Assembly: GCA_044229975.1 (NCBI GenBank)
Contig: JBGARZ010000001.1
Span: forward strand, 608,001 to 672,000
Origin: Polyangiales bacterium
Lineage (GTDB): Bacteria > Myxococcota_A > Polyangia > Polyangiales > Ga0077539
Direction: 5' to 3'
DNA: 64,000 bases
The stretch's first letter is position 1; every line of letters starts with the position of its first letter. The position numbers were made by a program, and so were the translations under genes. The notes beneath the pieces are model-generated. The model was not told the DNA's origin. It did no database searches and saw only the letters and a list, made by a program, of their open reading frames with translations. This document shows positions 20,672-40,563 of this stretch, in pieces.

Positions 20672-20791
20672 CGGTGCTCTCGCGTGCCCGCGCCGGCCCG
20701 ACCGATCGGCGCGCTCCACCGCAACGCGAGCAACCAGTATCCGGGCCGTCGCGCAGCAGCGCCGCGCGTTCGCCCCATCGCCCGCTGCCGA

Positions 20792-22454: not shown

Positions 22455-24956
22455 ATGGAGACGAAGCAACGCGCTCAACGATGGGTCGCGGTCGTGTCGG
22501 TTGTCGGGTTCGCGATGGCGTGCAACCCCGACCCGGTGGCGACCCCGACGGACGTTCCCGCCGCCGACGGAGGCGGTGGCGACACCGGCGGCGACACGGG
22601 GACCGTGGACGATCAGGGCACCGCGGAGGACAGACCCGCCGTCGACACCGGCGGGTTCGACGCCCCGTCGCAGGACATCGGAGGAGGCCCGGACGTCGTC
22701 GTCGACATGGACTCGTCCATCGACGCGGGCGGAGGCAGCGACGCGACGGACATCGACGCGCCCGACGTCCTGACCTGCGGCGCCGACCTCACCGCGTGCG
22801 GCGCCACGTGCGTCGACACCCGCTCCAGCAGCGCCAACTGCGGCGCGTGCGGCACCGCCTGTACCGGCGGCACGAGCTGTACCGCCGGGACCTGCACCTG
22901 CCCCGCGGGCCAGGTCTCGTGCAGCGGAACCTGCGTCGACACCACCAGCAGCGCCACCAACTGCGGCGCGTGCGGCACCGCGTGCGCCGCCGGGCAGGTG
23001 TGCTCGGCGGGCGTCTGCGGAAGCTCCTGCGGCGCCGGGCTGATCTCGTGCGGCGGCGCGTGCGTCGACACCCAGTCGAACAACGCCCACTGCGGCGGCT
23101 GCGGCGTCGCCTGCACCGGCGGCACGACCTGCGTCTCGGGCGGATGCGCCTGCCCGAGCGGACTCACCCGCTGCGGTGACGCGTGCGTCGACACGCGCAG
23201 CGCCGCGGCCAACTGCGGTACCTGCGGCACGGCTTGCTCCGCGGGCCAGGTGTGCTCGGCGGGCGTGTGCGCCACGAGCTGCGCGACCGGCACCACCAAC
23301 TGCTCCGGCGCGTGCGTCGACACGACCTCCAGCGCCACCAACTGCGGCGCGTGCGGCGTCTCGTGCACCGGCGGCACCGCGTGCGTCGCGGGCGCCTGCG
23401 CCTGCCCGGCGGGCCAGAGCCTCTGCGGCGGCGTGTGCACTGCGACCTCGACCGACTCGCGCAACTGCGGCGCGTGCGGCCGGGCGTGCAGCGTCGGCCA
23501 GGCGTGCGCGGCGGGGAGCTGCGTCGTCGAGTGCCCGGCCGGGACCACCAACTGCGGCGGCGTCTGCTTCGACCTCGGCACCAGCGCGGGCAACTGCGGC
23601 GCGTGCGGCGTAGCCTGCACCGGCGGGCGCACCTGCACCGGCGGGAGCTGCGTCTGCGCGGCGGGCCTCACGAGCTGCTCGGGCGCCTGCGCCAACACCC
23701 AGACCGACGGCGCCAACTGCGGCGCCTGCGGGCGCACCTGCGGCGCGAGCCAGCTCTGCTCGGCGGGCGTCTGCACGCTCGTCTGCGCAGCGGGCACCAC
23801 CAACTGCGGCGGGTCGTGCGTCAACCAGCAGACCGACAGCGCCAACTGCGGCGCGTGCGGGGCGGCGTGCACCGGCGGCCAGGTCTGCACCGCGGGCGCC
23901 TGCGGGTGCCCGACGGGTCAGCTCCTCTGCGGCGGCGTCTGCATCAACCCGCAGACCAACAACACCAACTGCGGCATCTGCGGAAACCTCTGCGCGGGCG
24001 CCACGACGTGCACGGCGGGCGTCTGCGCGTGCCCGACCGGCCAGGGCCTCTGCGGCGGCGCGTGCACCGACCTGACCAACAGCCGCACCAACTGCGGCGC
24101 CTGCGGGCGCAACTGCATGGGCGGTCAGGTCTGCAACGCGGGCGTCTGCGGCGCGACCTGCGCCACGGGGCTCACCAACTGCAACGGCAACTGCATCAAC
24201 ACGCAGACCAGCACCGCCAACTGCGGCGCCTGCAACCGCGCCTGCGGCGGCACGGCGACCTGCGCGGCGGGCGCCTGCACCTGCGCGACGGGGCAGAACT
24301 ACTGCGCGGGCGGCGGCGGTGGTGGCGGCGGCGGCGCGGGCTGCTTCGACCTCCAGAGCAACTCGCTCCACTGCGGCACCTGCGCGACCACCTGCACTGG
24401 AGGAACGGTCTGCACGGCGGGCGTCTGCGCGTGCCCGGCCGGCCAGACGCGCTGCGGGGCGACCTGCGTCAACACGCAGACCAGCAACACCAACTGCGGC
24501 GCCTGCGGCCGCACCTGCGGGACGGGTCAGACCTGCACCGCGGGCGTGTGCGTGTGCCCGACGGGCAACACGATGTGCGGCTCGGCGTGCGTCAACCTCC
24601 AGACGTCGAGCACCAACTGCGGCCTGTGCGGCAACACCTGCGCGGGCGGCACGGCGTGCTCGGCGGGGCGCTGCACCTGCCCGGCTGGCCAGATGCTCTG
24701 CGGCTCGGCGTGCGTCAACACCACGACCAGCACCGCCAACTGCGGCGCCTGCGGGCGCACCTGCGGCGACGGCCAGGTCTGCACCGCGGGCGCCTGCGCC
24801 TGCGCCACGGGCGGCATCACGGGCAGCCTCACCAACTGCGGCGCCGATGGTGGTGCTCTGGCCTGCTTCAACCTCAACTTCAGCAACTCCAACTGCGGGG
24901 CGTGCGGTCGCGCCTGCGCCGCTGGCCAGCGCTGCCTCCTCGGCGTCTGCCGCTGA
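22455..24956 (+). CDS. Large Cys-rich repeat lipoprotein (Stig1/MXAN_6577-like repeats)
   Basis: Lipobox AMAC; 17 C-x8-(N/H)CGxC units. Confidence 0.9.
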   Translation: METKQRAQRWVAVVSVVGFAMACNPDPVATPTDVPAADGGGGDTGGDTGTVDDQGTAEDRPAVDTGGFDAPSQDIGGGPDVVVDMDSSIDAGGGSDATDIDAPDVLTCGADLTACGATCVDTRSSSANCGACGTACTGGTSCTAGTCTCPAGQVSCSGTCVDTTSSATNCGACGTACAAGQVCSAGVCGSSCGAGLISCGGACVDTQSNNAHCGGCGVACTGGTTCVSGGCACPSGLTRCGDACVDTRSAAANCGTCGTACSAGQVCSAGVCATSCATGTTNCSGACVDTTSSATNCGACGVSCTGGTACVAGACACPAGQSLCGGVCTATSTDSRNCGACGRACSVGQACAAGSCVVECPAGTTNCGGVCFDLGTSAGNCGACGVACTGGRTCTGGSCVCAAGLTSCSGACANTQTDGANCGACGRTCGASQLCSAGVCTLVCAAGTTNCGGSCVNQQTDSANCGACGAACTGGQVCTAGACGCPTGQLLCGGVCINPQTNNTNCGICGNLCAGATTCTAGVCACPTGQGLCGGACTDLTNSRTNCGACGRNCMGGQVCNAGVCGATCATGLTNCNGNCINTQTSTANCGACNRACGGTATCAAGACTCATGQNYCAGGGGGGGGGAGCFDLQSNSLHCGTCATTCTGGTVCTAGVCACPAGQTRCGATCVNTQTSNTNCGACGRTCGTGQTCTAGVCVCPTGNTMCGSACVNLQTSSTNCGLCGNTCAGGTACSAGRCTCPAGQMLCGSACVNTTTSTANCGACGRTCGDGQVCTAGACACATGGITGSLTNCGADGGALACFNLNFSNSNCGACGRACAAGQRCLLGVCR

Positions 24957-25030
24957 GACCCTGAAGCCTCGCAACGGTGCGGCGGCGCTACTCCCTCCCT
25001 CCGGGCGGGAGGAGTATCGTCGCCGCCATC

Positions 25031-26596
25031 ATGCTGACCCGACGAGACCTGTTGAGCGGAGTGGGCGCCTCGGTGGCCTTGGGTACGGTGACCGCGGGCT
25101 GCGGCGGCGACGGCGACCCGGCTCCGGCGTCCATCGACGTGGACTTCCTCCATGGCGTCGCGAGCGGCGACCCGATGCCCGACAAGGTCATCCTCTGGAC
25201 CCGGGTCACGCCGCGCGCCGGAGCGTCAGGCACCGCGGTGGTGCGCTGGGAGGTCTCGCGCACGCTCGACTTCGCGGCGCTCGTCGCGTCGGGGTCGTTC
25301 AGCACCACGGCCGAGCGCGACTACACCGTCAAGGTCGACGCGAGCGGCCTGCCCGCCGGCACGACGCTCTACTACCGCTTCAGCGTCAACGCGACGCGCT
25401 CACCCATCGGCCGCACCCGCACCGCGGCGTCGGGCGCGCTCGATCGGCTGCGGCTCGCGCTCGTGTCGTGCTCCAGCTACGCGCACGGGTATTTCCACGT
25501 CTACCGCGACGTCGCGGAGATCGCCGACCTCGACGCGGTCGTCCACCTCGGCGACTACATCTACGAGTTCCAGAACTTCCTCTACGGCAACGTCCGCACG
25601 TACGACCCGCCCGAGGCGGTGTACACGCTCGCGGGCTACCGTCGACGGCACGCGTACTACAAGCGCGACGCGGACGTGCGGGCGCTCCACCAGCAGCACC
25701 CGATGATCGCGGTCTGGGACGACCACGAGTTCGCCAACAACACGTGGATGACGGGCGCGGACAACCACTCCGAGGAGTTCGAGGGCGCGTGGGCGACGCG
25801 CAAGGCCGCCGCGCAGAAGGCGTACTTCGAGTGGATGCCCATCCGCGAGCAGGCCAACGGCGCCATCTGGCGCAAGCTCTCCTTCGGCAACCTCGTCGAC
25901 CTGATGATGCTCGACACGCGCGTCTGGGCGCGCAGCATGCAGATGGTCGAGCCCGTCGTAAACGACGCGCAGCGCACCCTCCTCGGCAACGACCAGGAGC
26001 AGTGGCTGCTCAACGCGGTGATGACCTCGACCGCGCGCTGGAAGCTCCTCGGTCAGCAGGTGGCCATGGGCCCCATCCACCCGTACCCCAACCCCGATGC
26101 GTGGGAGGGGTACGCCACGGCGCGCACGCGCTTCCTCCAGGCGCTCGCGACGATGCGCGCGTCCAACGTGGCGGTGCTCACGGGCGATATCCATTCGTCG
26201 TGGGCGATGGACGTCGCCATCGACCCGTTCACGCCGTCGGCCTACGACCCGGCGACGGGGCGCGGATCGCTCGGGGTGGAGTTCATCACGCCGGCCGTGA
26301 CGTCACCGGGCGACGAGCCCGACGCGGTGGCCGCCACCATCGTCGCGCAAAACCCCCACATGCGGTACGCCGAGCCGGGCCTGCGCGGGTATGTGCTGCT
26401 CGACTGCACGCCCGAGCGCGCGCACGGCTCCTGGTACCACCTCGCGGCGGGCAGCATCGAGCGACGCGAGCGCCAGCGAACGACCTTCAGCAGCGCATGG
26501 ATGACGCTCAACGACGCCAACCATCTCGTCGCGGGCGGCGATGCTCCAGCGCCTCGGGCCAACGCGGCGGCGCTGGTTCCGTTCGAGCCGGCGTGA
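25031..26596 (+). CDS. phoD: Alkaline phosphatase D family protein, Tat-exported
   Basis: TRRDLL Tat motif, FLHGVASGDP, HLGDYIYE, WDDHE, LDTR, TGDIH. Confidence 0.95.
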   Translation: MLTRRDLLSGVGASVALGTVTAGCGGDGDPAPASIDVDFLHGVASGDPMPDKVILWTRVTPRAGASGTAVVRWEVSRTLDFAALVASGSFSTTAERDYTVKVDASGLPAGTTLYYRFSVNATRSPIGRTRTAASGALDRLRLALVSCSSYAHGYFHVYRDVAEIADLDAVVHLGDYIYEFQNFLYGNVRTYDPPEAVYTLAGYRRRHAYYKRDADVRALHQQHPMIAVWDDHEFANNTWMTGADNHSEEFEGAWATRKAAAQKAYFEWMPIREQANGAIWRKLSFGNLVDLMMLDTRVWARSMQMVEPVVNDAQRTLLGNDQEQWLLNAVMTSTARWKLLGQQVAMGPIHPYPNPDAWEGYATARTRFLQALATMRASNVAVLTGDIHSSWAMDVAIDPFTPSAYDPATGRGSLGVEFITPAVTSPGDEPDAVAATIVAQNPHMRYAEPGLRGYVLLDCTPERAHGSWYHLAAGSIERRERQRTTFSSAWMTLNDANHLVAGGDAPAPRANAAALVPFEPA

Positions 26597-27345
26597 GCGA
26601 GCGGCCGCACCTGTCGCTGGTGATCCCGGCCTTCAACGAGGCCCGGCGGCTGCCGGCGACGATGCGCCGCATCGCGGAGTACGGCGACGGCTTCGGGTGC
26701 TCGGTCGAGGTGCTCGTGGTGGTCGAGCGCAGCACCGATGACACGCTCGCGCTGGCGCGAGACGTGGCGAAGAGCGCCCGGTGCTTCGAGGTGATCGACA
26801 ACGAGGTGCAGCGGGGCAAGGGGTACGCGGTGCGCTCGGGCGTGCTGCGCGCGCGGGGCGAGCACGTGCTCTACATGGACGCCGATTTGAGTGTTCCGCT
26901 GGAGGACGTGGTGGCCTTCGTGGAGCACTTCGGCGCGCACCCCGAGGTGGACGTGCTGGTGGGCAACCGGCAGCACGCGCAGAGCCACATCGTGCGGCGG
27001 CAGTCGTGGCTGCGCGAGCGCATGGGGCGGACCTTCAACCGGGCGCTGCGGTCGCTGTCGCTGCTGGATCTGCGCGACACGCAGTGCGGGTTCAAGGCCT
27101 TTCGCGCGGGCGCGGCGCGGCGGATCTTCTCGCGGCAGCGGCTCGACGGCTTTGCCTTCGACGTGGAGGTGCTGCTGCTGGCCGAAGCGCTGGGGCACCG
27201 GGTGGGTGACCTGCCGGTGCGCTGGGTGAACTCGCCCGAGTCGAAGGTGGGGATGCTGCGCGACAGCGCGCGGATGCTGGCGGACGCAGTGCGGGTGCGA
27301 CGCCTGGTGGCGGAGACGATGCGGGCGCGACCGGCGGAGGAGTGA
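26593..27345 (+). CDS. GT2 dolichyl-phosphate beta-glucosyltransferase-like protein
   Basis: SLVIPAFNE, GKGYAVRSG, MDAD, DTQCGFK, FAFDVE. Confidence 0.92.
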   Translation: MSERPHLSLVIPAFNEARRLPATMRRIAEYGDGFGCSVEVLVVVERSTDDTLALARDVAKSARCFEVIDNEVQRGKGYAVRSGVLRARGEHVLYMDADLSVPLEDVVAFVEHFGAHPEVDVLVGNRQHAQSHIVRRQSWLRERMGRTFNRALRSLSLLDLRDTQCGFKAFRAGAARRIFSRQRLDGFAFDVEVLLLAEALGHRVGDLPVRWVNSPESKVGMLRDSARMLADAVRVRRLVAETMRARPAEE

Positions 27346-27400: not shown

Positions 27401-27910
27401 ATGGCGAACCCCACCGCACTCCTCGAGACGTCCCTCGGCAACATCAGGGTCGAACTCTTCGTCGACCAGATGCCCATCACGGCCGGCAACTTCGTGAAGC
27501 TCGCGAAGTCCGGCTTCTACGATGGCCTGCACTTCCACCGCGTGATCAACGCCTTCATGCTCCAGTTCGGCTGCCCGTACAGCAAGGACCCCAAGAGCGG
27601 TCGCGCGGGTACCGGCGACGGCCCCGACGGCAACATCAAGGACGAGTTCGCCGCGAAGCTCTCCAACGAGGTCGGCACGCTCTCCATGGCGAACACCGGC
27701 GCCCCCAACAGCGGGTCGAGCCAGTTCTTCATCAACACCAAGCACAACGCCTTCCTCGACTGGTTTTCGCCCGGCGCGTCGAAGCACCCGGTGTTCGGCA
27801 AGGTCATCGAGGGCATGGACGTCGTGAAGAAGATCGAGACGACCCCGACCGACGCCAACGACCGCCCGCGCACCCCGGTGCAGATGATCCGCGTGACCGT
27901 CCAGGAGTGA
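27401..27910 (+). CDS. Cyclophilin-type peptidyl-prolyl isomerase
   Basis: [31 protein letters not shown]. Confidence 0.96.
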
Positions 27911-27992: not shown

Positions 27993-28376
27993 ATGCAACG
28001 ACCCCCGATGACGCGACACCGCGTCGGCCTCGCGACCTTAGTTCTTGCCGGATGCGTCAACTCAGCCACCATCACCAGCTCGCGCGACGCGTCGCCTGAC
28101 GCCGGCGTCGGCCTCTCCGATGTCTTCGTCGACGCGGGGCTGCCGTCACGCGACGCTTCGACCACCGACCAACCAGTGTTCGTCGTCACCGACGGGGTCG
28201 TCGTTGTCAGCGACGCCCGACCCGCCGTCGACGCGTCGTCACCCGATGCCATCGCGACGTGCGCGGGCGTCCGTTGCGCCGCGGGTGAGTCGTGGGCGCC
28301 TGCCCATAGGCGCGTTGGATCAGTGCCGCGTCATGGTGTCCCTACAAACCGAATAACTTTTCGAGGAACTCGCTGA
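27993..28376 (+). pseudogene. Probably truncated lipoprotein gene
   Basis: LAGC lipobox and DA-rich linker; a Cys domain starts (CAGVRCAAGES) then runs into the convergent gene. Confidence 0.4.
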
Positions 28377-29127
28377 CGGCGACGATGCGCGGGAGCTTGA
28401 GCGTGTCGCCCTTGAGCCAACGGTTGTCCTGGATGGACACCTGCACCGCCTTGCCGGGCCTCAGCACGTTGGCGACACACGCAACCATCGCCTTCTTGGG
28501 ACCAGCTGGCGCCCCGAAGGCTTTTCGATCATCACGATCGAACGCCGGGCCTTCGAGAGACACGCCCTCCACGTACGATCGTGCGCCCGCGAGGAGTGCC
28601 GGGTAGGTCACCTCAGCAGCTTCGATCAGCAAGTCTTCCAGCGTGCCCGCGGACGTGTTGTCGGGGAGCACGAAGACTCCGCACCGAGGAGAGCTCATCG
28701 ACACGTTGCCTGACACATCGGGAAGGGTCAGGCCGAGCGCTGCGAGGCCACCCCGGATGGCGGCAAACCGCGTGGTCGGCAACGCGTCGCCGTCGGCGTC
28801 GAGCAGAACGCCCACACCGCCAAGATCGGCCATGCCGTTCGGTAGCAAGGCGAGACTCTCTTCCACGGTGCCAACGAGGCGCGTATCGCCAACGGCTGCC
28901 TGCACCGCGATCGAGTGCGTGCCACTCGCGAAGAACACGGGGACAGGCATGCGCTTGAGAAGATCCTCACCGTCCGACGGGAAGTTCCGCGGCACGAGAG
29001 GCAACCAGAAAGGGTCGAGCGCTGACAGGGTCTTGATCCGAGCCAGGCCGAATGGCTTCAGCAGACGGCCGACGAACTCGACGTCGTGCGGACCTTCGAC
29101 GACAAGGTAGCTGCGGTTCGTCGTCAC
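28342..29127 (-). CDS. DUF3226-like (TOPRIM-like) protein
   Basis: VVEGPHD, LDAD, FVLPDN..GTLEDLL motifs; GTG overlaps the ATPase stop. Confidence 0.8.
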   Translation of the reverse strand: MTTNRSYLVVEGPHDVEFVGRLLKPFGLARIKTLSALDPFWLPLVPRNFPSDGEDLLKRMPVPVFFASGTHSIAVQAAVGDTRLVGTVEESLALLPNGMADLGGVGVLLDADGDALPTTRFAAIRGGLAALGLTLPDVSGNVSMSSPRCGVFVLPDNTSAGTLEDLLIEAAEVTYPALLAGARSYVEGVSLEGPAFDRDDRKAFGAPAGPKKAMVACVANVLRPGKAVQVSIQDNRWLKGDTLKLPRIVAVSEFLEKLFGL

Positions 29128-30242
29128 CGAACGTCGAGGCCCCGCTCGTGGCGGAGGCGATAGAGCATGTCGCCGCCATAGCGCTTCACGGTGCCGGAGC
29201 GACCGACCACGCCGAGGTGATACCCAGCGATCTGGTCCCGGTGCCCGTCGCCCGCCTTGAGCACGGCGTCGAGAGCTTCGAGACTGTGGGTCGTGGCGAA
29301 GAGCTGCACGTCGTACTCGTGACACGCCTCGACGAGCCACCCGAACACCCCGCCGAGCGCCGAGACGTGGATCGCCGTCTCGAGTTCATCAATCAGCAAC
29401 ACACCACCGCGCAATGGAGGGAGCGTGAGCGCATACATGAGCGCGCGGCGTACCCCGTCGCCGAAGGCTGAGATCGGCACGAGGCCCTGCGTGGCATGAC
29501 GCAGGTACAGGCGCGGCTGCGTGCCCGTTGGAGAGAGGATCACGAGGTCGCGGATGTTGTCGTCGACGCGCCGAATGAGGTCGATGACCGCCGGCTTGAA
29601 GTCGCCGAAGTGGGCTTCGGAGAGCTGCTGAAGCTGCAAGCGCTCGATGCGGTGCGAGAACGGGGTGACGGTCGCGCTGGGCAACGAGGGGTGCTTCGCC
29701 CCCCGCTGCCGGGTGATGAACTCGTCCTCCCAGAACTGGAAGGTCTCGTGCTCCTCACCAACGAGATTGATCGGCAGACCCTCCGCGGAGAGCGACAGCA
29801 ACAAGCCACGTTGCGGCGCAAGGAACATCTCAAATTCGGGTTGTTGTCCTATCCTCAGGGGCACCTGTGACGCCCTCCGAGGCGCGCCTTCATTCTCTTC
29901 GAGCAAGCCCCTCGAAGCTCGAACGGGGAAACTGCCAGTCCCCAGGACCTCGGTCCGGAACACCTGGGTGCCCCTCGCCTCGTCTTCATCGACGAGTTGA
30001 GGGAACATCCACTTGAGCGACTCCAATCGCGTGCCACGAGCGGACCCGACCTCGCGACGCCACGCGGTCGTCGCCCACTCCAACGGATCCAACGGCCGAC
30101 AGAAGGTCGCGACCGCCTCCAACACGCTCGTCTTGCCCGAGTTGTTCGCCCCCACCAACAGATTGACGCGAGCGAGACGCGCCAGCTCAACGTCCCGAAG
30201 GCCCCGAAACGCACGGATCGTCAACGACTCCAACGCGTTCAC
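29124..30242 (-). CDS. ABC-type (AAA_15/AAA_21-like) ATPase
   Basis: GANNSGKTS, FGDG, LLIDELETAIH, ATTHS. Confidence 0.92.
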   Translation of the reverse strand: MNALESLTIRAFRGLRDVELARLARVNLLVGANNSGKTSVLEAVATFCRPLDPLEWATTAWRREVGSARGTRLESLKWMFPQLVDEDEARGTQVFRTEVLGTGSFPVRASRGLLEENEGAPRRASQVPLRIGQQPEFEMFLAPQRGLLLSLSAEGLPINLVGEEHETFQFWEDEFITRQRGAKHPSLPSATVTPFSHRIERLQLQQLSEAHFGDFKPAVIDLIRRVDDNIRDLVILSPTGTQPRLYLRHATQGLVPISAFGDGVRRALMYALTLPPLRGGVLLIDELETAIHVSALGGVFGWLVEACHEYDVQLFATTHSLEALDAVLKAGDGHRDQIAGYHLGVVGRSGTVKRYGGDMLYRLRHERGLDVR

Positions 30243-30345: not shown

Positions 30346-31167
30346 TCACCGCCCAGCGAGCAGCGCCTGCACCCGACGACCCTCGTCGGTCAGCGCCCGC
30401 TTCGGCCCGCCTTCCTCCACGAACAACCCCTCCAGCGGCCCGATGAACACCGCGTCGAACCCGCCGCCGAGCGCGTCGTCGTTGACCGACTCGCAGCGCC
30501 CGAAGCGCGGCCCCTCACTCGCGCGATCGTTGAGATCGGTCTCGATCGCGTCGAGCCCCGCCTCGGCCAGCGCGGCCCTGAACTCCGCCTGCGTCCCCGT
30601 CGTCACCAGCGTCCCCGGTCGCGCCGCGCGCACCGCGTCCGCGCTCGCCCGCAGGAAGCCCGCCAGCGCGGGCCACGTCACCCCGTCGCCGATGAGCGCC
30701 TCGGGCGCGTGCATCAGCTCCACCGCCAGCGTCACGTCCGCGCTCAGCGCCCGCGCGATGGGCGCCGCGACCCGCTCCGCGAAGCGCTCCGGCGCCGCCA
30801 CCAGCTCGCGATAGAACGCCCGGTCTTCCGCCCCGTCGGCGTTGCCGTCGAGCAGCGTCCACACCACGCGCAGCCCCGTGAGCCGCGCGCCGTCCTCCAC
30901 GGCCTTCACCGCGTCGAGCAGCGCCGGGTGAACGCCCTCCACCGCACCATCGCGCGTGACGATGCCTTCGCCCGCTTCGCACAGCCACACGCGCACGGCC
31001 TCGAAGCCCAGCTCGCGCGCCTCGACCAGCGCGCCGTACGCCTTGAAGGCGTCGAAGTCCGACGGCCACCCGTCGCGTCGCTCGTTGGGCGCCATGTCGT
31101 GCCCGTAGGCGCCTGCAAACCACGGGAGCTCGACGCCCATCAACGGTCGGTTGGTCTGGTCAGTCAT
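30346..31167 (-). CDS. Glycoside-hydrolase (GH5/clan A)-like TIM-barrel protein, possibly degenerate
   Basis: GVELPWF..YGHD, GFEAVRVWL, ELMHAPE where NEP is expected. Confidence 0.55.
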   Translation of the reverse strand: MTDQTNRPLMGVELPWFAGAYGHDMAPNERRDGWPSDFDAFKAYGALVEARELGFEAVRVWLCEAGEGIVTRDGAVEGVHPALLDAVKAVEDGARLTGLRVVWTLLDGNADGAEDRAFYRELVAAPERFAERVAAPIARALSADVTLAVELMHAPEALIGDGVTWPALAGFLRASADAVRAARPGTLVTTGTQAEFRAALAEAGLDAIETDLNDRASEGPRFGRCESVNDDALGGGFDAVFIGPLEGLFVEEGGPKRALTDEGRRVQALLAGR

Positions 31168-32338
31168 CGTGCATGTCGATGGTGTTGCCCGACGGCGCCC
31201 CCACGCTCTTCTTCCGCGTCGGAATCCGCAACGGAACCACCCCCGACTCCACGCTCTCGCCCGCGAGAGAGCTCGCGAGCATGCCGGCGTTCCACTCGTC
31301 GTCCCAGGCGTAGTTGAAGCTGTTGCAGGCGACGCACTTCTTCTCCAACCCCTCGCGGACGATGTCGCGCGCGAGGTCGGTGGAGAGCGCGTCGATGAGG
31401 GAGTCGCTCTTGATGTTTCGCCCCTGGTGCCAGCACAGGTAGAAGCCGTGATCGCTGAAGCCGATGAACTTCTGCGGAATCTTGCAGCCGCCCGCGGGCC
31501 GGTAGCGCCGGTCTTTCCGCGCGTAGAGCGCGAAGTGGTCGAGCAGCAGCGTCTTCTCGTTGAACCAGGTATTGGTCTCGGCACACTCGCGCTCGATGCG
31601 AACCAACTGCGCGTGGGCGAGCGCCTCCTGCTCGCGCGTCATCTGGTACTGCGCCGTCTCGGGCACCACCTCGACGTGGGAGAAGCCGCAGTACGCGTAG
31701 CGGTGACCACCAATCCCCTGGATGTGCTTGAAGAGGTCGTAGAGCTGGTGGGCGTTGTCCTTCTGCATCACCGTGTTGGTGCCCCAGCAGAGCTTCGTCT
31801 CCGCCAGCCACGTGAGCGTGCGCTCGGTGCGCTTGAAGGTGCCCACCCGCTGCCGGATGTGGTCGTGCGTGTCGGCGAGACCGTCGACGGACACCGTCAT
31901 CGAGTCGAGCTGCGACAGGAAGTCGAGGCGCTCGCGCTTGATGAGCGTTCCGTTGGTGACGAGCTGCACCTTCACGCCGAGCGAAAACGCGTGCTCCAGA
32001 AGTTCGTAGATGGCCGGGTGCACGAAGGGCTCGCCGCCCGAAAACGACACCACCTCGACGCCCACCGCGACGGCCTCGTCGAGCGCGCGCTTGCAGACCT
32101 CCTTCTCCATGAAGAGCGTCTCGGAGGGCCGACGACACATCTGACAGGTGAGGTTGCAGTACTCGCTCAGCGCGATGTCCATGCGCGCGTACGACGTGAA
32201 CAGAACATCCTTCCCGCACGCCGGACACGCCTCGCGCTCCAGCGCCTCGCGGCCCGACATCGTGTGCGTCACCTTCGTCCCGCACGAGCACGCGCGGGTC
32301 TTGGTGGCGGTGGTCGACGCGCTTGGGGTAGCGCTCAC
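31160..32338 (-). CDS. Radical SAM protein with N-terminal Zn-ribbon-like and C-terminal Cys motifs
   Basis: CSCG..CPACG; CNLTCQMC; SGGEP; TNG; SVDG; C-terminal CKIP..C..CVAC. Confidence 0.92.
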   Translation of the reverse strand: MSATPSASTTATKTRACSCGTKVTHTMSGREALEREACPACGKDVLFTSYARMDIALSEYCNLTCQMCRRPSETLFMEKEVCKRALDEAVAVGVEVVSFSGGEPFVHPAIYELLEHAFSLGVKVQLVTNGTLIKRERLDFLSQLDSMTVSVDGLADTHDHIRQRVGTFKRTERTLTWLAETKLCWGTNTVMQKDNAHQLYDLFKHIQGIGGHRYAYCGFSHVEVVPETAQYQMTREQEALAHAQLVRIERECAETNTWFNEKTLLLDHFALYARKDRRYRPAGGCKIPQKFIGFSDHGFYLCWHQGRNIKSDSLIDALSTDLARDIVREGLEKKCVACNSFNYAWDDEWNAGMLASSLAGESVESGVVPLRIPTRKKSVGAPSGNTIDMHDD

Positions 32339-33354
32339 AGCGCGGCCTCGGCGAGCTCCGGCGACGCGGCGACGTGCGCGAAGGTCTCGACGTCCGAGCA
32401 GGCCGCGAGGCACCCCGGGCAGCGCTCGGTGAGGGCGAGCACCTGCAACTGCTTGTGGTGCCGCGAGTGCCAGATGTCGCGGATGCTGTCGTTGTAGACG
32501 TTGCCCAGGCGGTCGTTGTCCTGGCGCATGAAGAAGCAGGGGTAGACGTCGCCCGTGTAGTTCACGAGGAGAAACTTCGACGGCAGGTAGCAGCCGCCCG
32601 GTGGAATGGGCCGCTTGCCGTCGATGAGGTAGTCGGGAATCACCCCGAACATCGCCTCGGTGAAGATCTTCACGCCGCGCTCGCGGGCATGCTCGCGCAA
32701 GAACTCCAACCGGCGAATGAGCTCAGCGCGCTGCGGGCGCAGGAGCGAGAAGCGGTTGAGGTCCTTCTCGGGGCCAGAGATCTCCATCTGGAACGGCTGG
32801 AACGACACCTCGCCCACGCCGAGCTCGGCCGCGAGATCGACGAGCGCCGTGAGGTGCGGCAGCGTCTCGCGCAGGATCACCCCCGACAGCCCCACCCGCA
32901 CGCCGCGCGCGATGGCCTTGCGCACGGTGGCGACGCACTTGTCGTAGACGCCTTCGCCGCGCAGGTCGTCCTGCACTTCGCGCGGGCCGTCGATGGAGAC
33001 GTGGAGCTGCACCGACGGGCACTTCACCAGGCGGTCGAAGTGGGCGTCGGTGAGCATCGTCCCGTTGGTGACGATCTCCTGCATCGTGTAGCCGAGCGCG
33101 TGGGCGTACTCGACGATGTCGAGGAAGTCCTTGCGCATGAACGACTCGGCCCCGCACGGAACGAACGTCCGCGCACCAAGGGCGTAGGCGTCGTCGAGGA
33201 GCTTCTTGGCGAGGTCGAGCGGCACGCCGTGCTCGCGGATCTCCCACACGCTGCACATCTTGCACTGGAGGTTGCAGTACACGGTGAGCTCGACGGCGAG
33301 CTGATCGAGGGGGCGGGTGAGAACGCGTGCCGGGAGCAATGGTGCGAAGGACAT
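32335..33354 (-). CDS. Radical SAM protein with SPASM/twitch domain
   Basis: CNLQCKMC; TNG; SIDG; CYLP..GDVYPC..LGN..IW..CPGC..C. Confidence 0.93.
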   Translation of the reverse strand: MSFAPLLPARVLTRPLDQLAVELTVYCNLQCKMCSVWEIREHGVPLDLAKKLLDDAYALGARTFVPCGAESFMRKDFLDIVEYAHALGYTMQEIVTNGTMLTDAHFDRLVKCPSVQLHVSIDGPREVQDDLRGEGVYDKCVATVRKAIARGVRVGLSGVILRETLPHLTALVDLAAELGVGEVSFQPFQMEISGPEKDLNRFSLLRPQRAELIRRLEFLREHARERGVKIFTEAMFGVIPDYLIDGKRPIPPGGCYLPSKFLLVNYTGDVYPCFFMRQDNDRLGNVYNDSIRDIWHSRHHKQLQVLALTERCPGCLAACSDVETFAHVAASPELAEAAL

Positions 33355-33355
33355 C

Positions 33356-34306
33356 TCAGTCTCCAACCGCGCTCGCGGTGTTGTCGCTCGTCGAAGCCGC
33401 GCGGGACTCGCGCTCGCGGTCGCGCCGGCACCACGCGAGCACGAACTCGACGTCGTTGGCGTAGCCGTTTTTCACCCACGCGCCGCGCGCTTCGTCGCGC
33501 ACGAACCACCGCACGTCCTGCCGCACGAGGGCGGCGAGGGCGCGGTCGTGGGGGTACTTGTCCATGAAGTAGACCGAGTTGCGCACGTAGCTGTCGTAGG
33601 TGGGCGCGAGCTGCCGCACCTCGCAGCGAAACGGGTCGCGCGGCTTCGGGTCTTCGAGGTGCAACGCGCGGGCGGTGGGCGCCGCGACGACCTCGTAGCC
33701 CCGGGCGTGGAGCTGGTAGCCGTACTCGATGTCCTCCATGCCCCAGCCGACAAACCCCGAGTCGAAGCGCGGGAGCGAGGCCGACAGCGGCACCGAGAAG
33801 TTGCACGAGTACACGAAGAACCAGGGCGTCGCGTGCGCGGTGACGAGCGCCCCGTCGGCGCCGAGCACCTCGGTGCGGTCGTCGGGCTCGGACACCACGA
33901 TCTCGTCCCAGGTCGGCCGCTCGCGGTCGAACGCGAAGGTGCGATGGCGGTACCCGATGGCGACGCGCGGCGTGCTCGATGCGGCGTGGGCGCGGAGGTG
34001 CGAGGACACGAAGTCGGGCGCGACCAGCACGTCGTCGTCGAGGAAGATCACCACGTCGCCGATGGCGCGGGCGAGGCCCATGTTGCGCGCCTGCCCCGCG
34101 CGGAAGCCGCGGTTCTCCTGATGGCAGTACACGAGCGGGAGCGCGTCTGCGAACGAACGGGCCACGGCCGCGGTGTCGTCGGACGATCCGTCGTCGCAGA
34201 CGACCACGCGGGCGAGCGCGTCGCCGGTCTGCCCCGCGAGACAGCGCAACAGGCGCCCCAGGTGCGCCGAGCGGTTGAAGGTCGGGATGACCACCGTCGC
34301 CTTCAT
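33356..34306 (-). CDS. GT2 glycosyltransferase
   Basis: VVIPTFNR, DDGS, ARNMG, FLDDD, GWGMEDIE. Confidence 0.93.
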   Translation of the reverse strand: MKATVVIPTFNRSAHLGRLLRCLAGQTGDALARVVVCDDGSSDDTAAVARSFADALPLVYCHQENRGFRAGQARNMGLARAIGDVVIFLDDDVLVAPDFVSSHLRAHAASSTPRVAIGYRHRTFAFDRERPTWDEIVVSEPDDRTEVLGADGALVTAHATPWFFVYSCNFSVPLSASLPRFDSGFVGWGMEDIEYGYQLHARGYEVVAAPTARALHLEDPKPRDPFRCEVRQLAPTYDSYVRNSVYFMDKYPHDRALAALVRQDVRWFVRDEARGAWVKNGYANDVEFVLAWCRRDRERESRAASTSDNTASAVGD

Positions 34307-34417
34307 CCCACCGCCTCCGCTCGCCTGACCGTCTTCCATTGGGGTTCGTAGGTGCCGGTGGCCCACCGTCGCCAGCAGCGGCGGCGTTTGTATCACAACC
34401 CCGGTGGTCGTTCGCGG

Positions 34418-36586
34418 CTACGGTCTGACCAGCACCACCGTCGCCCCACTGCCTGCGACGGCCGCCTCCGCGACCGCGAGGTTGCCTTCCCCCACGACGG
34501 CCACCTCGTCGACGCGAACGTCCTCCATGGCGAGCCGCTTGAGGGTCTCGGCCAGCGCCGTCACCGTCTCATCGGCGACGATCACCCGCGCCGTGCGACG
34601 AACGCCCGCCTCCTTCAGCGCCGCGAAGCCCCGCTCGAAGCGCGCAAACGCCTCGGGCCGACGGGTGGCCCGCGCGAAGGTCTCGTGGTCGAAGCCGTAG
34701 ACCTCCACCGTGACCTGATCGAGCCCTGCCTCGCGCGCGGCCTGCGCCAGCGCTCCGTCGCCAAACGGAACGGCCGTCGTCTGCACCGTCGCCCACCGCA
34801 CGCCCGCGCGCCGCGCCTCGCGCAGCAGCGTGAGGAAGCCGGGGTGCTCCGCGGGTTCGCCACCGAGGATGTAGATCTGCGTCGCGCCCACCTTGCGGAC
34901 GTATTCGAGGCGGTCGAGCACCTCGCGCGTCGACATGCCCCCGGGCTGCACCCGGTGCAGCGCGCGGTGAAACGGGACGTCGAGTGACGAAGCGCCACCC
35001 ACCTCGACGCCCACGCACGAGGGTCGCCCGCAGGTCTCGTCGACGTCCGAGAGCGACTGCGCATGGAAGCGCTCGATGACCGGGTCGCCTGGGTGGAGCG
35101 ACCGCAAGCGATCGAGGTTGGTGAGGTATCCCGCGAAGCGCTCGCGCGTCGGTGACGGGTGGCGGAAGGGGTTGCGGGGCGGTCCTTCGGTGGGGTCGAC
35201 GAGGTGGTAGCCGACGGCGAAGCGACCGAAGACCCAGGTGGCGCCGGCGCGGTGCAGTCGATACCCGAGGTCGATGTCTTCGAGGCCCCAGCCCGTGAAG
35301 TCCTGCGCGAACCCGCCGATCTCCGTGAGCAGCGCGCGAGGCAGCGACAGGTTGCCCGTGTACGCGAGGCGCCACGGCTCGGCGAGCCAGTCGATGTTGT
35401 CGAGGCATCCACGCAGCGTGGGCTCGCGCGAGCGATCGGGAATCACCGCCAGCGCTCCGTCGGGGTCGTCGACACCGCGCAGGTCGTCGAGCGTGTGGAC
35501 GAAGCCCGCGTCGTGGAGGTTGTAGCCGGAGAGGTAGCCCAGCACGACGGCGCGCGGCGCGCGGCGATGAACCCAGTCGAGGGCCCATAGGTAGTCGCGG
35601 CCCACCACCACGTCGGCATCGAGGAAGGCCAGCGTGTCGAAGCGTGCTTCCGCCGCGCCTCGCTGCCGCGCGCGCCCCGCGCCGAAGACCCCGCGCTCGC
35701 CCGCATCGGAGACGAGCCGCACGTTGGCGGGTGCGCCCGCGAGCGCCACGGAGAGATCATCGCGCGATCCGTCGTCGACGACGAGCACCTCGAAGCGGTC
35801 GTCGGGGTAGCTCTGCGCGCCCAGACGTCGCACCACTTCGGCGAGAATCTCCACGCGATCACACGCCGGGATCACCACCGAGATGGCCACCGGTGGACCA
35901 TCGAGCGGACGCACCAGGCCGAGCGCCTCCTGCCCATCGAGTCTCGGGATGGCCAGCGCGTCGCCGTCCCAGCGCAGCGTGTCGGAGACGGTGAAGGCAG
36001 CTCGATAGCCAGCGCGTCGCACGGCCTCGCGTGCGGCGGGGGGTGCCTCGCCGTAGGGGTACGCGAAGAGGGCGACGTCGACGCCGAGCTCGCGCTGCAT
36101 CACCTCGCGGGAGCGGGCGCACTCCTCGTCGAGGCGGGCGGCGTACGCGGCGGCGTCTTCGTCGTAGAGGCGCCAGCTCATGCGGGGGTGCGTGACGGTG
36201 TGGGAGCCGAGGGTCCAACCGAGATCGCGCAGGGCGCGGAGCTCGTCCCAGGAGAGAAACTCATCGCTGGTCCCGACGCTCCCGGTCGGCACGAAGAGTG
36301 TCGCGGGGACGTCGAGCGAGCGCAGCAAGGGCGCGGCGTGGGTGAGCACCGAGCGCTGGGCGTCGTCGAAGGCGAGGGCGTAGCGGTCGGCGGAGAGCGG
36401 CGCTCGGAGGTACTCGTCGAGCGCGGCGGGACGGCGGCCCTCGACGGCGAAGCGCTCCACGGCGGCGCGGAGCTGCGCGGGCGTCACCGCGAGGCGACGG
36501 CCGGACGAGGCGGGTTCGACGTAGTGGAGACAGAGGTTGAGCGCGGTGTTCATGGCGACTGCGGAGGGGGCGGACGATGCCGCCAT
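34418..36586 (-). CDS. Fusion: polysaccharide deacetylase (NodB) + GT2 + degenerate radical-SAM-like domain
   Basis: AFDD, GSHTVTH, FAYPYG; VVIP, DDGS, FLDAD, GWGLED; C-terminal GGEP barrel lacking CxxxCxxC. Confidence 0.88.
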   Translation of the reverse strand: MAASSAPSAVAMNTALNLCLHYVEPASSGRRLAVTPAQLRAAVERFAVEGRRPAALDEYLRAPLSADRYALAFDDAQRSVLTHAAPLLRSLDVPATLFVPTGSVGTSDEFLSWDELRALRDLGWTLGSHTVTHPRMSWRLYDEDAAAYAARLDEECARSREVMQRELGVDVALFAYPYGEAPPAAREAVRRAGYRAAFTVSDTLRWDGDALAIPRLDGQEALGLVRPLDGPPVAISVVIPACDRVEILAEVVRRLGAQSYPDDRFEVLVVDDGSRDDLSVALAGAPANVRLVSDAGERGVFGAGRARQRGAAEARFDTLAFLDADVVVGRDYLWALDWVHRRAPRAVVLGYLSGYNLHDAGFVHTLDDLRGVDDPDGALAVIPDRSREPTLRGCLDNIDWLAEPWRLAYTGNLSLPRALLTEIGGFAQDFTGWGLEDIDLGYRLHRAGATWVFGRFAVGYHLVDPTEGPPRNPFRHPSPTRERFAGYLTNLDRLRSLHPGDPVIERFHAQSLSDVDETCGRPSCVGVEVGGASSLDVPFHRALHRVQPGGMSTREVLDRLEYVRKVGATQIYILGGEPAEHPGFLTLLREARRAGVRWATVQTTAVPFGDGALAQAAREAGLDQVTVEVYGFDHETFARATRRPEAFARFERGFAALKEAGVRRTARVIVADETVTALAETLKRLAMEDVRVDEVAVVGEGNLAVAEAAVAGSGATVVLVRP

Positions 36587-37743
36587 CACCACGCCGGTGT
36601 CACGGGGGAGTGAGACCTCCCGCCCAGGGTGCCGTTGCCGAGCGCGCCGTACACGTTGCTTCCCCAGCACCGGACCGAGCGATCGCGCAGCAACGCGCAG
36701 GCGAAGCCCTCCGCCGCGACCAGCGTGTCCACGTCGGCACCGAGCTCCACCAGCGTCTCGCGGGGGATCACCTGCTCGTCGACGTCGCCCAGCTGGAGCT
36801 GCCGGGTATCGTTGCGCCCCGCCGCAACCCAACGCCCATCGCGGCCGTGCGCGAAGGTGGAGCCGCCGCCCGCGAACACCTGCGTGACGTCGCGTGCGAA
36901 GTCCGAGCGCGTCGCTCGGAAGGCGTCCGCCACGTTGCCCACCATGAGCTGACCGTACTCGTTGGCCCCCCAGCACCAGAGCACCGACGCGCCGTCGACC
37001 GCGCACGCGTGCTCGCTGCCGCTGGACAACCCGACCGCCCCGGCGAGCCCGTCGACCTCGTTGATGCCGCGGTCGTCGACCGCCGTCACCAGGCCGCGCT
37101 GCCCGCGCTCGTTGCGACCGAAGCACGACACCCGACCGTCTTCCCGCAGCGCGCAGAACCCGTCACGCAGCGCGCCGACATCGCGCACTCGCGGCAGCCC
37201 CGGGAAGGGCTCCGTCGCTGCACCATGGCCCTCCCAGCAGACGACCGCGCCCGTCTCGCGGAGCGCGCACGCCTGGCCCGCACCCACGGCGATCTGCCGT
37301 GCGTCGACGAGACCCGCAACCGTGGTCGGTCCACCGGGAGTGACCTTTCCCGCCGAGGCGTCGGCGAGCCCCCAGCACTGCACGACACCGTCGGCGCGGC
37401 GACCGCAGGTGCGGCCCCAGCCCGCCGTCACCGCGACCGCCGTGACGCCCTCCACCCGCCGCGGTCGGGCGATGGCACTGTCGACGAGGTCGGGCGCCGA
37501 CTCGCCGCGGAGGTTGGACCCCCAGCACCAGACCGCGTGGGCCTCGTCGACGGCGCACACGTGCCTGCCCGACGCCGAGAGTTGCACGATGCGCGGCGCA
37601 CACCCGCATTCCGCCGCGTCGGCGCGCGCGGCGGGGGCGTCGACGGAGGCGTCACCCGCGAGCACCGGGAGCTGCGCGCACGCCGCGACAGTCGCCGCCC
37701 AACCGACGACGGCGAGGCGGAGCGGGCTCGGCCGACGCGACAT
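36586..37743 (-). CDS. RCC1/BLIP-II repeat lipoprotein
   Basis: Repeated HxCA..CWG.N..G motifs; VAAC lipobox; TGA overlaps next ATG. Confidence 0.88.
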   Translation of the reverse strand: MSRRPSPLRLAVVGWAATVAACAQLPVLAGDASVDAPAARADAAECGCAPRIVQLSASGRHVCAVDEAHAVWCWGSNLRGESAPDLVDSAIARPRRVEGVTAVAVTAGWGRTCGRRADGVVQCWGLADASAGKVTPGGPTTVAGLVDARQIAVGAGQACALRETGAVVCWEGHGAATEPFPGLPRVRDVGALRDGFCALREDGRVSCFGRNERGQRGLVTAVDDRGINEVDGLAGAVGLSSGSEHACAVDGASVLWCWGANEYGQLMVGNVADAFRATRSDFARDVTQVFAGGGSTFAHGRDGRWVAAGRNDTRQLQLGDVDEQVIPRETLVELGADVDTLVAAEGFACALLRDRSVRCWGSNVYGALGNGTLGGRSHSPVTPAW

Positions 37744-38544: not shown

Positions 38545-40563
38545 ATGGATGACGCCGGCACGCTCCCTCCCGGCACCGTGCTCGGCGGCGAGTACGAGAT
38601 CGTGCGCGAGCTGGCGCGCGGCGGCATGGGCGCCCTCTTCGTCGCCCGGCACCGCGGCTCGGACAAGCTCCGCGCCGTCAAGACGATGCATCGGAAGTAC
38701 GTCCCCGATGACATGATGCGCGCCCGCTTCGCCCGCGAGGCGAGGGTGAGCGCGCAGATCGAGAGCGACCACGTCGTCGAGGTGTTCGGCGCCGGCGTCG
38801 ACGACGCAACGGGCGTCCCGTGGATGGCCATGGAACTCCTCGACGGCGAAGACCTCTCGCACCTCATCGATCGCCGCGGCGCGATGGGGGCCGACGAGAC
38901 GGCGACGGTCATGGCGCAGCTCGGTCACTGCCTCGGCGCCGCCCATCGGGTGGGCATCGTTCACCGCGACCTGAAGGCCGCCAACGTCTTCCTCGCGGCG
39001 TCCCGTCGGCAGGGCGCGCCCTTCGTCGCGAAGGTGCTCGACTTCGGCATCGCGAAATTCCTCCACGTCGCCACCACGAGCGCGACGACCAGCGCCATCG
39101 GCTCGCCCTTGTGGATGGCGCCCGAGCAGACCAACCCCGAGTCGCCCATCTCGCCCGCGACGGACGTGTGGTCCATGGGGTTGCTGGCGTTCTTCCTGCT
39201 CACGGGGAAGTGCTTCTGGCTCACGCCCACGCACCCCAACGCGAGCATCGCCGCGCTGCTCGGCGAGCTGCTGATGTTGCCCATCCCCTCGGCGTCGTCG
39301 CGGGCCATCGCGCTTGGTGCGACGGGGCGCATCCCGCCGGGCTTCGACGAGTGGTTCGCCCGGTGTCTCTCGCGAGATCCCGCGCAGCGCTTCGCCGACG
39401 CCAACGCCGCCATCCCCCCGCTGCTCGCGGTGCTCCAGGCCGCCGCGCCCGTCGTCGGCGCCGCGGCCCCGGTGCCGGTCGCGCAGGCCGCGCACTCGGC
39501 GAAGGCGATGCTGAGCGCCACGCAGATGCTCCCGCAGACGCCGGCTCCGCCGACCAGCCCCAACCTCCGCGTCAACGCGCCCGCGACGGTGGCGATGCCC
39601 GTCTCCGCGCTGCCGGGTCACACCACCGGATCGCTCGGGATGCCCTCGTCCCCCGCGCCGCGAGCGATGACCGCGCAGCCGATGACGTTCACGCAAGGGG
39701 TGCCGCGCCCCGAGGCGCCGTCGCGCAGTCCGCGGTCGAGCGCCGCCATCGTCGGCGGCGTGGCCGTCGTGACCATCGCCCTCGCCGCGGTGGGCGTCTG
39801 GGCCTTCCAGAAGCGGAGCGACGATCATCGCAGCGCACCAACGGTCGCCGCCCCGACGCTCGCGCGTCCGGCGCCGGTCGGTCCGCTGCTCGCTGCCGCG
39901 CCGAAGCCTGCGCCGCTGCTGCCTGCTGCACCGATCGCGGCACCCACTGCGACACCGATGATGGCGCCCGGCACGGAGACCGAACCGCGCCGCAGCCTCC
40001 GCGCCAACGAACGCCCGCCGATGCCCGGAGCGCCCACCTACGCCGACGTGCCGGTGTTCCAGATACCGACCACCGGCCCGACGCCAGCGCCGATGCCGAC
40101 GCCCGCGCCAGCCCCTGCGCCGATGCCGACCCCTGCGCCTACGCCAGTCGTCGCGCCGACTCCCGCTCCCGCTCCCGCTCCCGCTCCCGCTCCCGCTCCC
40201 GCTCCCGCTCCCGCTCCCGCTCCCGCTCCCGCGCCGACGCCTGAGCCGACGCCTGCTCCCACACCGACGCCTGCTCCCGCGCCGACGCCCGCTCCTGCTC
40301 CCGCGCCGACGCCGACGCCGACGCCGACGCCCGCGCCCCCACCGGCAGAACCTCCCGCCGACGAGCGCGACGAGCACGGGCGCATCGTGACCTCATCGAC
40401 CTCGCTCCACGGCGGGCAGCGCATCCGCATCCGCTGGGGTGGAGGCTGGTACCCAGGGCGGGTCGTTCACCTCAACGACAACGGAACCGTCTACGTGCAC
40501 TACGACGGATGGAGCGACGGCCAGGACGCCAACGTCTCGCGCTCGGAGTTGCGCCTCCCCTGA
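38545..40563 (+). CDS. Ser/Thr protein kinase with TM, Pro/Ala linker and C-terminal Tudor-like domain
   Basis: [27 protein letters not shown]-terminal [17 protein letters not shown]. Confidence 0.95.
40165..40230 (+). repeat. Perfect coding microsatellite (GCTCCC)x11
   Basis: Encodes the (AP)n linker of the kinase. Confidence 0.92.

Follow-up and report, generated by a model that had tools for sequence, protein, structure and literature searches.

Multi-component transmembrane glycosylation combines a GT-A glycosyltransferase (GT), a flippase and a GT-C glycosyltransferase with a YfhO or PMT-2 domain (PMC8035078), and a Gram-negative variant with auxiliary epimerases has also been described (PMC11127046). 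Radical chemistry on sugars is represented by radical S-adenosylmethionine (rSAM) enzymes such as BlsE, which acts on a uronate derived from UDP-glucuronic acid (PMC3715490), by the dehydrogenase BtrN and by the epimerase NeoN, whose hydrogen donor is given as Cys249 (PMC10991966). So how does a locus compare with these systems if it encodes glycosyltransferases and two rSAM enzymes side by side? Such a locus lies in a 64,000-nucleotide stretch of a Polyangiales bacterium genome (assembly GCA_044229975.1, contig JBGARZ010000001.1; G000:C32:608001-672000 in our numbering, where G000 is the source genome and C32 and the like are its contigs), hereafter the window. Five of the six genes at this locus are a conserved module: a deacetylase-GT2-rSAM-like triple fusion (FUS), a free family-2 glycosyltransferase (GT2), two twitch-type rSAM paralogs (RS1, and RS2 with a Zn-ribbon-like extension) and a protein resembling glycoside hydrolase family 5 (GH). 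We lean, if only slightly, towards a roughly twelve-gene pathway, spread over at least three contigs in this genome, that would build a small glycan of rSAM-edited mannose or mannuronate and aminosugar and carry it on a polyprenyl phosphate to a surface acceptor; the five window genes would be its cytoplasmic half, and the window appears to hold the radical SAM half.

A preliminary description, made from the window alone, had proposed six co-directional genes, with four of the five junctions overlapping or abutting, that build and radically tailor an aminosugar-containing glycan, glycolipid or small molecule. The arrangement is as described: all six open reading frames (ORFs) are on the minus strand with their frames open, their GC content at third codon positions (GC3) is 0.88-0.95, and the gaps between successive genes in operon order are -1, +111, +1, -4 and -8 bases. 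Pfam agrees with the labels of the first five genes (RCC1; Polysacc_deac_1, GT2 and Radical_SAM in FUS; GT2; Radical_SAM and SPASM in RS1; Radical_SAM in RS2), none of the six proteins reaches any NCBIfam family cut-off, and promoter and terminator scans returned signals at chance level. What this analysis observes directly is which genes are present, how they are linked and fused, and the state of their motifs.

Scanning species genomes with RS2 yielded 41 loci, many on short contigs; once L048, which belongs to a genome that another locus already represents, and L049, unrelated at 28% identity, were dropped, 39 remained, with RS1 at 38, GT2 at 30, GH at 17 and FUS at 16. The relatives that carry them are metagenome-assembled genomes (MAGs) labelled Polyangiales, Sandaracinaceae, Polyangiaceae or Myxococcota. 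Co-conservation in other genomes thus holds for these five genes and fails for the sixth, the RCC1 lipoprotein, which had been listed as a cluster member: RCC1-like matches occur at two of the 39 loci, at 26-27% identity and not upstream of FUS, the source genome has 32 RCC1-like places, and among 23 genomes an RCC1 gene precedes FUS only in the source genome itself. Because of this pattern we regard RCC1 as a bystander and reject it as a pathway member.

The module is not the whole system. Clustering of the ORFs around the rSAM pair brought out further recurring families: a GT4 glycosyltransferase, a nucleoside diphosphate (NDP)-sugar dehydrogenase, an ATP-binding cassette (ABC) exporter, YfhO-type and PMT_2-type membrane proteins, a SAM-dependent methyltransferase, two SGNH proteins and a polyprenyl-phosphate-type GT2. 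In the source genome their counterparts lie on other contigs (Table 1), so that the proposed six-gene cluster, five of whose genes do belong, makes up only about half of the roughly twelve-gene system. The best solved match of the dehydrogenase is GDP-mannose 6-dehydrogenase (E 7e-115 versus 3e-62 for the next), and at 20 of 30 loci no more than about 1.5 kb separates this AlgD-like gene from the GT4 gene. Hydrophobic segments number 7-8 in the proteins of the YfhO and PMT types, whereas GT4 and the five conserved window proteins have none; the YfhO-type protein matches PF09586 above the cut-off in the copies of two relatives, and the PMT_2 match is under the cut-off. The polyprenyl-phosphate GT2 is most similar to PpgS/AglJ/ArnC-type enzymes, all under the cut-off, and the ABC exporter resembles MsbA-like exporters in general. 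An NAD-dependent epimerase/dehydratase is found near the membrane genes in three relatives and in the source genome. A GtrA-, Wzx- or MATE-type flippase was not seen among the recurring neighbour families, the rest of the genome not having been searched for one, and these families likewise include no alginate- or poly-N-acetylglucosamine (PNAG)-type synthase or secretion machinery. A DPM-synthase-like GT2 encoded elsewhere in the window was considered as the carrier-priming enzyme and rejected, as it is not a recurring neighbour.

The same partners recur at the level of whole genomes. Among 41 RS2-bearing genomes, matches were found for GT4 and the YfhO type in 40 each, FUS in 39, the polyprenyl-phosphate GT2 in 38, GH in 37, the AlgD-like dehydrogenase in 35 and the methyltransferase in 25; one of these genomes, G411, is unpublished and is matched in all seven tallies, so that setting it aside lowers every count by one, and none of the conclusions hinges on it. 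As to controls, GT4 and RS2 occupy the identical eight of 401 genomes of the phylum, and the YfhO type occurs in 19 of the 401, all eight RS2 carriers included. The polyprenyl-phosphate GT2 was detected in nine of 80 genomes, the five best scores being those of the five RS2-positive ones, and FUS was not found in any of four RS2-negative kin.

Set beside the three-component systems (CsbB/GtcA/YfhO), the present system is alike in that the window genes are accompanied by a transporter, by a GT2 of the polyprenyl-phosphate type and by multi-pass proteins of the YfhO and PMT_2 types; through the PF09586 matches of the relatives, its membrane half includes a multi-pass GT-C protein of the kind that defines such systems. 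It differs in having, among its recurring genes, an ABC exporter instead of a GtrA, Wzx or MATE flippase, in its myxobacterial host, and in its three extra soluble GT domains, deacetylase, GH5 protein and two rSAM enzymes. The other best solved matches are K4 chondroitin synthase for the GT2 domain of FUS, IcaB/PgaB for its deacetylase domain, AlgD for the dehydrogenase and GH5 beta-mannanases for GH; unlike the alginate and PNAG systems, however, this one lacks their machinery among its recurring neighbours, and a hydropathy scan shows no export signal in its deacetylase or its GH5 protein.

RS1 and RS2 both match PF04055 above the cut-off and keep CxxxCxxC, which places them in the radical SAM superfamily, and they are full-length paralogs (probability 99.9). 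In RS1 the motif GGE is replaced by PCGAE, and PCGAE and CPGCLAAC are present in 41 of 41; its auxiliary cysteines are C255/C273/C312/C315 plus C319, four to five of them invariant, it matches PF13186, and its C-terminal part matches BtrN (E 8e-10). The twitch cysteines of RS2 (C285/C302/C335/C338) stand at positions aligned with those of RS1, its basic residues R69, R70, K275 and R278 are invariant in 180 rows, and the family is tight, with seven representatives above 300 bits and the next at 221. If twitch is defined by one auxiliary cluster and SPASM by two (PMC11002830), the C-terminal cysteines, about four in each protein, fit twitch, or half-SPASM, rather than full SPASM, which corrects the label rSAM-SPASM given to RS1.

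Predicted models of RS2 and RS1 (pLDDT 84 and 82) align with solved rSAM structures at Z about 25. For RS2, BlsE is the top match by sequence and by structure (7vob, Z 25.0, root-mean-square deviation (rmsd) 3.0, 286 aligned), tied in structure with SkfB (Z 24.8, rmsd 4.6); for RS1, SkfB, SuiB and BlsE are tied at Z about 25. With the BlsE similarity low and tied with SkfB and SuiB, the reaction does not follow from the fold. BlsE was reportedly described later as a dehydratase, and against its model as a cytosylglucuronate decarboxylase (TIGR04466) RS2 scores 63 bits versus a cut-off of 400. The BlsD/BlsE pair of blasticidin S resembles our system in bringing together a glycosyltransferase, uronate supply and an rSAM enzyme with an extra cluster (PMC3715490). 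Cytosine and peptidyl-nucleoside genes are absent here, however, and RS2 carries an additional N-terminal domain with four cysteines. BtrN and NeoN share with RS1 and RS2 an rSAM core followed by a short auxiliary-cluster domain, and the spare invariant cysteines of RS1 are candidate hydrogen donors; their structural scores are lower, however (Z 15-16 for BtrN), and no aminoglycoside genes are present here. An Atlas search returned generic rSAM clusters only, and a viperin or defence role was rejected, the PADLOC matches being weak and confined to the core. More distant rSAM homologs occur elsewhere in the source genome, on C30 (L057-L059) and on C14 (Table 1), some paired or within large multidomain ORFs.

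FUS shows three Pfam domains, a deacetylase (PF01522, above the cut-off), a GT2 and a Radical_SAM domain. By profile search, its deacetylase domain is closest among solved structures to 4wcj, of the IcaB/PgaB type (E 1e-16), although it stays below the IcaB/PgaB equivalog cut-offs, and its GT2 domain to the K4 chondroitin synthase 2z87 (E 1e-27). The motifs FDDA, HxxxH, DAD and WGLED are retained, and the deacetylase metal residues D74, D75, H129 and H133 are invariant in 13 rows. The C-terminal domain, which had been called rSAM-like, still aligns to the rSAM core, but CxxxCxxC is present in none of 25 genomes; because three of these keep a CxxxC remnant, the domain reads as a decayed rSAM, that is, a pseudo-rSAM. 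The free GT2 and the GT2 domain of FUS are paralogs (33% identity), and natural GT2-rSAM fusions exist (L047 and P0378), which together suggest that FUS probably arose from a duplicated GT2-rSAM unit.

The profile of the GH family matches GH5 beta-mannanases (E 3e-11), with the acid/base glutamate (NEP) in 41 of 45 rows and the nucleophile glutamate in 40, one further row being a partial match. The window copy, which has no Pfam match of its own, reads HAP for NEP and is missing the nucleophile region, so that both catalytic glutamates are lost. An intact paralog is encoded on C20, and each of the four genomes whose row lacks the acid/base glutamate, this one included, has a second, intact copy. 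We read the window GH as a copy that became relaxed once a replacement had come in, or else as a protein that binds without catalysing. RS2 is fused to an intact GH5 domain in a pair of proteins that share 76% identity; a predicted complex of RS2 with the intact GH5 paralog scored 0.00, which is evidence neither way.

Beyond Myxococcota the system is found in reduced form. In a MAG labelled Acidimicrobiaceae (G439, locus L047) a sulfotransferase, GH, GT2-RS1, RS2 and GT4 stand together, and GT4 occurs in one of 97 genomes of its family, namely this MAG. In Rhodobacter sp. TJ_12 (NCBI names) the GT4 homolog CKO11_00840 and the RS2 homolog CKO11_00830 are two locus tags apart, presumably with a GH between them. 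There is, besides, an RS2 labelled Bacteroidetes. The RS2s of L047/G439, of the metagenome contig L107 and of Rhodobacter form one clade apart from the myxobacterial RS2s (FastTree support 1.0, 32 chosen rows). Because distant members hold GT4-GH-RS2 without the membrane genes, and because RS2-GH fusions exist, GT4-GH-RS2 is, as judged from gene content, the core with the widest spread; GT2-RS1 forms a second unit, and FUS and the membrane genes together form a myxobacterial extension. On L107 the cassette has restriction-modification-like genes around it, together with a SAVED/HNH plus SMODS pair resembling a cyclic-oligonucleotide-based antiphage signalling system (CBASS), surroundings that suggest a mobile island. 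Plasmid searches with RS2 and GT4 gave no match; on viral contigs there were two distant GT4 matches (24-30%), and RS1 was not found in the one viral record searched. Searches of G000, G197 and G267 yielded no sulfotransferase. A more distant rSAM-plus-glycosyltransferase system is represented by two loci of about 30% GC, L114 and L115, and by the proteins P0297, P0301 and P0331: at least three rSAM genes in tandem are accompanied by a multi-pass membrane protein and by rSAM-GT2 fusions whose GT2 is of the chondroitin-synthase-like type.

How would such a pathway work? The AlgD-like dehydrogenase would supply a GDP-uronate, and the polyprenyl-phosphate GT2 would prime the lipid carrier, on which GT4, GT2 and the GT2 domain of FUS might extend the glycan. 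The FUS deacetylase may free an amine, which the optional SAM methyltransferase could cap. Each rSAM enzyme would be paired, RS1 with GT2 and RS2 with GH5 and GT4, because fusions and co-occurrence show these linkages. By analogy with BlsE, RS2 may abstract a hydrogen from the uronate, leading to decarboxylation or dehydration, and RS1, with its spare invariant cysteines, may epimerise in the manner of NeoN. GH5 would trim or recycle beta-mannosides, a task that would fall to the C20 copy, the window copy being predicted dead. Finally, the lipid-linked glycan would be flipped by the ABC exporter, and GT-C enzymes of the YfhO and PMT types would carry out its transfer on the outside. Of the products allowed by the preliminary description, the partner genes favour a lipid-carried surface glycan over a free small molecule, and they indicate mannose or uronate no less than an aminosugar. 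In the cluster of six relatives (Table 1), usually near the SGNH gene, there is a gene for a small protein that is predicted to be secreted, contains the repeat CGDxxCxPPEDCxxCxxDCG two or three times and has no Pfam match; its matches elsewhere in the source genome are weak only, and it is a possible glycan acceptor.

Several findings weigh against this reading. The strongest is that distant members, where checkable, are without the membrane half: G439 has no match for the YfhO type, the AlgD-like dehydrogenase, the polyprenyl-phosphate GT2 or FUS, and L107 shows only sulfotransferase-GT4-GH5-RS2 within 10 kb on each side. The YfhO match in Pfam spans only the C-terminal 40-70 residues and is below the cut-off in the source genome's copy; the ABC exporter, which like the PMT-type gene was left out of the genome-wide tallies, has a 51% paralog elsewhere in that genome and reaches no flippase family cut-off. 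The 41 genomes are kin picked by RS2, mostly incomplete MAGs that partly overlap the control set, and the AlgD-like, GH and methyltransferase tallies cover RS2-bearing genomes only, without a phylum-wide control. The similarity to BlsE is about 20-24% identity and is shared with peptide-modifying SkfB (and SuiB for RS1), and at residue 146, beside the SAM-binding strand, the window RS2 carries Ser, in contrast to the Cys of 174 of 180 family rows. The substrate and the reaction, like the carrier and the acceptor, are all inferred.

The alternative that survives best, although we consider it unlikely, is that the GT4-GH5-RS2 core, with GT2-RS1, makes a diffusible, ABC-exported glycoside or oligosaccharide, antibiotic- or signal-like and decorated by a deacetylase, methyltransferase or sulfotransferase, the GT-C genes being linked but separate. 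The minimal core with a sulfotransferase and no nearby membrane genes in L107 and G439 is what such a scenario would predict, the sugar-acting relatives BlsE, NeoN and BtrN serve antibiotic pathways, the MsbA-like character of the exporter is a general one, and the distribution is patchy, the system not having been found in sampled genomes of the same genus or the same family. Yet in Myxococcota the YfhO-type and polyprenyl-phosphate GT2 genes not only track the rSAM genes, at the counts given above, but interleave with them, and no aglycone genes recur in the neighbourhoods of the rSAM loci.

That the rSAM enzymes edit nucleotide-sugar donors, for instance turning GDP-mannuronate into a deoxy, keto or pentose sugar, within a rare-sugar supply unit for varied glycans, seems to us improbable. 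The invariant basic residues of RS2 would go well with a phosphate or carboxylate group, the lists of structural matches are filled by nucleotide-acting viperins and by BlsE, the core crosses phyla with changing partners, and the epimerase/dehydratase near the membrane genes would be at home in such a unit. The fusion of RS2 to a retaining glycosidase and that of the deacetylase to a GT2 would, however, fit a glycoside substrate better. The HpnI/HpnK/HpnJ pathway combines a GT2, a deacetylase and a radical SAM enzyme, activities that occur together here as well, so one could imagine a membrane-lipid head group (hopanoid or sterol) that is glycosylated and radically remodelled by the same logic. 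There are weak matches to the HpnH and HpnB models, and HpnH-named Atlas clusters are among the feature-based neighbours; this notwithstanding, the scores are far under the cut-offs (55-62 versus 225 bits for HpnH, 23-24 versus 379 for HpnB), there is no B12-binding domain by Pfam, and no triterpene genes recur near the rSAM loci, which makes this possibility very unlikely. Modification by the rSAM enzymes of a peptide or protein that the glycosyltransferases then glycosylate, be it a glycosylated peptide that is made by ribosomes and modified after translation (RiPP) or protein maturation, deserves hardly any credence: SkfB and SuiB do tie with BlsE in structural ranking and the Cys-rich repeat protein is small and secreted, but that protein has a predicted export signal, accompanies the SGNH gene and is unmatched at the system loci of the source genome, RS1 and RS2 score far below the cut-offs of all RiPP maturase models (SkfB, MftC, PqqE, AlbA and others), and the operon, with its largest gap of 111 bases, leaves no space for a precursor peptide, just as the preliminary description had seen none. 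No small ORF family tracks the rSAM pair among ORFs of at least 70 amino acids (aa), shorter ones not having been searched systematically.

Other features of the window lie near the cluster (Table 1). An AAA ATPase and DUF3226 pair immediately downstream of it (GC3 lower than in the cluster, 0.78-0.82) has its best PADLOC matches in PDC-M38A (E 9e-63) and PDC-M38B and is a candidate anti-phage system. Further away, a predicted lipoprotein with many cysteine-rich repeats is followed by PhoD phosphatase, DPM-synthase-like GT2 and cyclophilin-like genes, and a Ser/Thr kinase gene is divergent from the cluster.

Table 1. Coordinates of the features discussed; positions with no prefix are those of the window
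Feature	Position	Strand	Description
RCC1	37743-36586	minus	385 aa, RCC1-repeat predicted lipoprotein; 1-base overlap with FUS
FUS	36586-34418	minus	722 aa, deacetylase, GT2 and apparent pseudo radical SAM domain; no membrane segment
GT2	34306-33356	minus	316 aa, soluble family-2 glycosyltransferase (Pfam)
RS1	33354-32335	minus	339 aa, twitch-type radical SAM (Radical_SAM and SPASM, Pfam)
RS2	32338-31160	minus	392 aa, radical SAM with N-terminal four-Cys Zn-ribbon-like extension
GH	31167-30346	minus	273 aa, GH5-like, degenerate copy
System genes, G000	C20:58880-68686		ABC, GT4, dehydrogenase, YfhO-type, second GH, methyltransferase
Intact GH paralog, G000	C20:66819-67883		
System genes, G000	C11:419989-423295		PMT-type gene, polyprenyl-phosphate GT2, NAD-dependent epimerase
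SGNH gene, G000	C27:48853-49893		
Distant rSAM homologs, G000	C14:173333-176700		
AAA ATPase	29124-30242	minus	
DUF3226	28342-29127	minus	
Lipoprotein	22455-24956	plus	833 aa, predicted; CGACGxxC repeats
PhoD phosphatase	24977-26596		
DPM-synthase-like GT2	26593-27345		
Cyclophilin-like gene	27401-27910		
Ser/Thr kinase	38545-40563	plus	long Pro-Ala/Pro-Thr repeat tail
Cys-repeat protein	L038:12098-12340		
Cys-repeat protein	L039:12107-12334		
Cys-repeat protein	L043:14096-14368		
Cys-repeat protein	L051:15729-16109		
Cys-repeat protein	L242:12665-13036		
Cys-repeat protein	L016:16256-16516		
Cassette and its surroundings	L107:7111-11137 and 18707-20751		sulfotransferase-GT4-GH5-RS2; SAVED/HNH and SMODS pair, CBASS-like

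The pathway is real and conserved, and apparently undescribed: co-conservation supports the earlier proposal of an undescribed sugar-building pathway with radical tailoring, no cut-off of a characterised family is reached, and the literature searched holds no description of the system, although subscription papers were mostly, and supplements altogether, outside that search, so that an entry in a genome-mining table could be missed. It comprises two candidate new enzymes, one with the non-canonical SAM-binding motif PCGAE, and would be a tractable system, with enzymes predicted to be soluble, a partner gene that indicates the likely donor, GDP-uronate, and a named carrier of GT4 and RS2 in Rhodobacter sp. 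TJ_12. A bolder possibility, which we put forward tentatively and hold to be somewhat short of an even chance, is that each glycosyltransferase has its own rSAM editor (GT2-RS1, GT4/GH5-RS2 and the cluster-less copy in FUS), in a new class of envelope glycosylation with radical editing on the carrier, yielding epimerised, decarboxylated or deoxygenated sugars, and with a GT4-GH5-RS2 cassette portable between phyla. If such on-carrier editing does take place, the surface glycans of these bacteria would contain residues that no nucleotide-sugar pathway makes. The coupling of two rSAM enzymes to lipid-carrier glycosylation, a use that we did not find in the literature searched, would carry radical chemistry on sugars over to the cell envelope.

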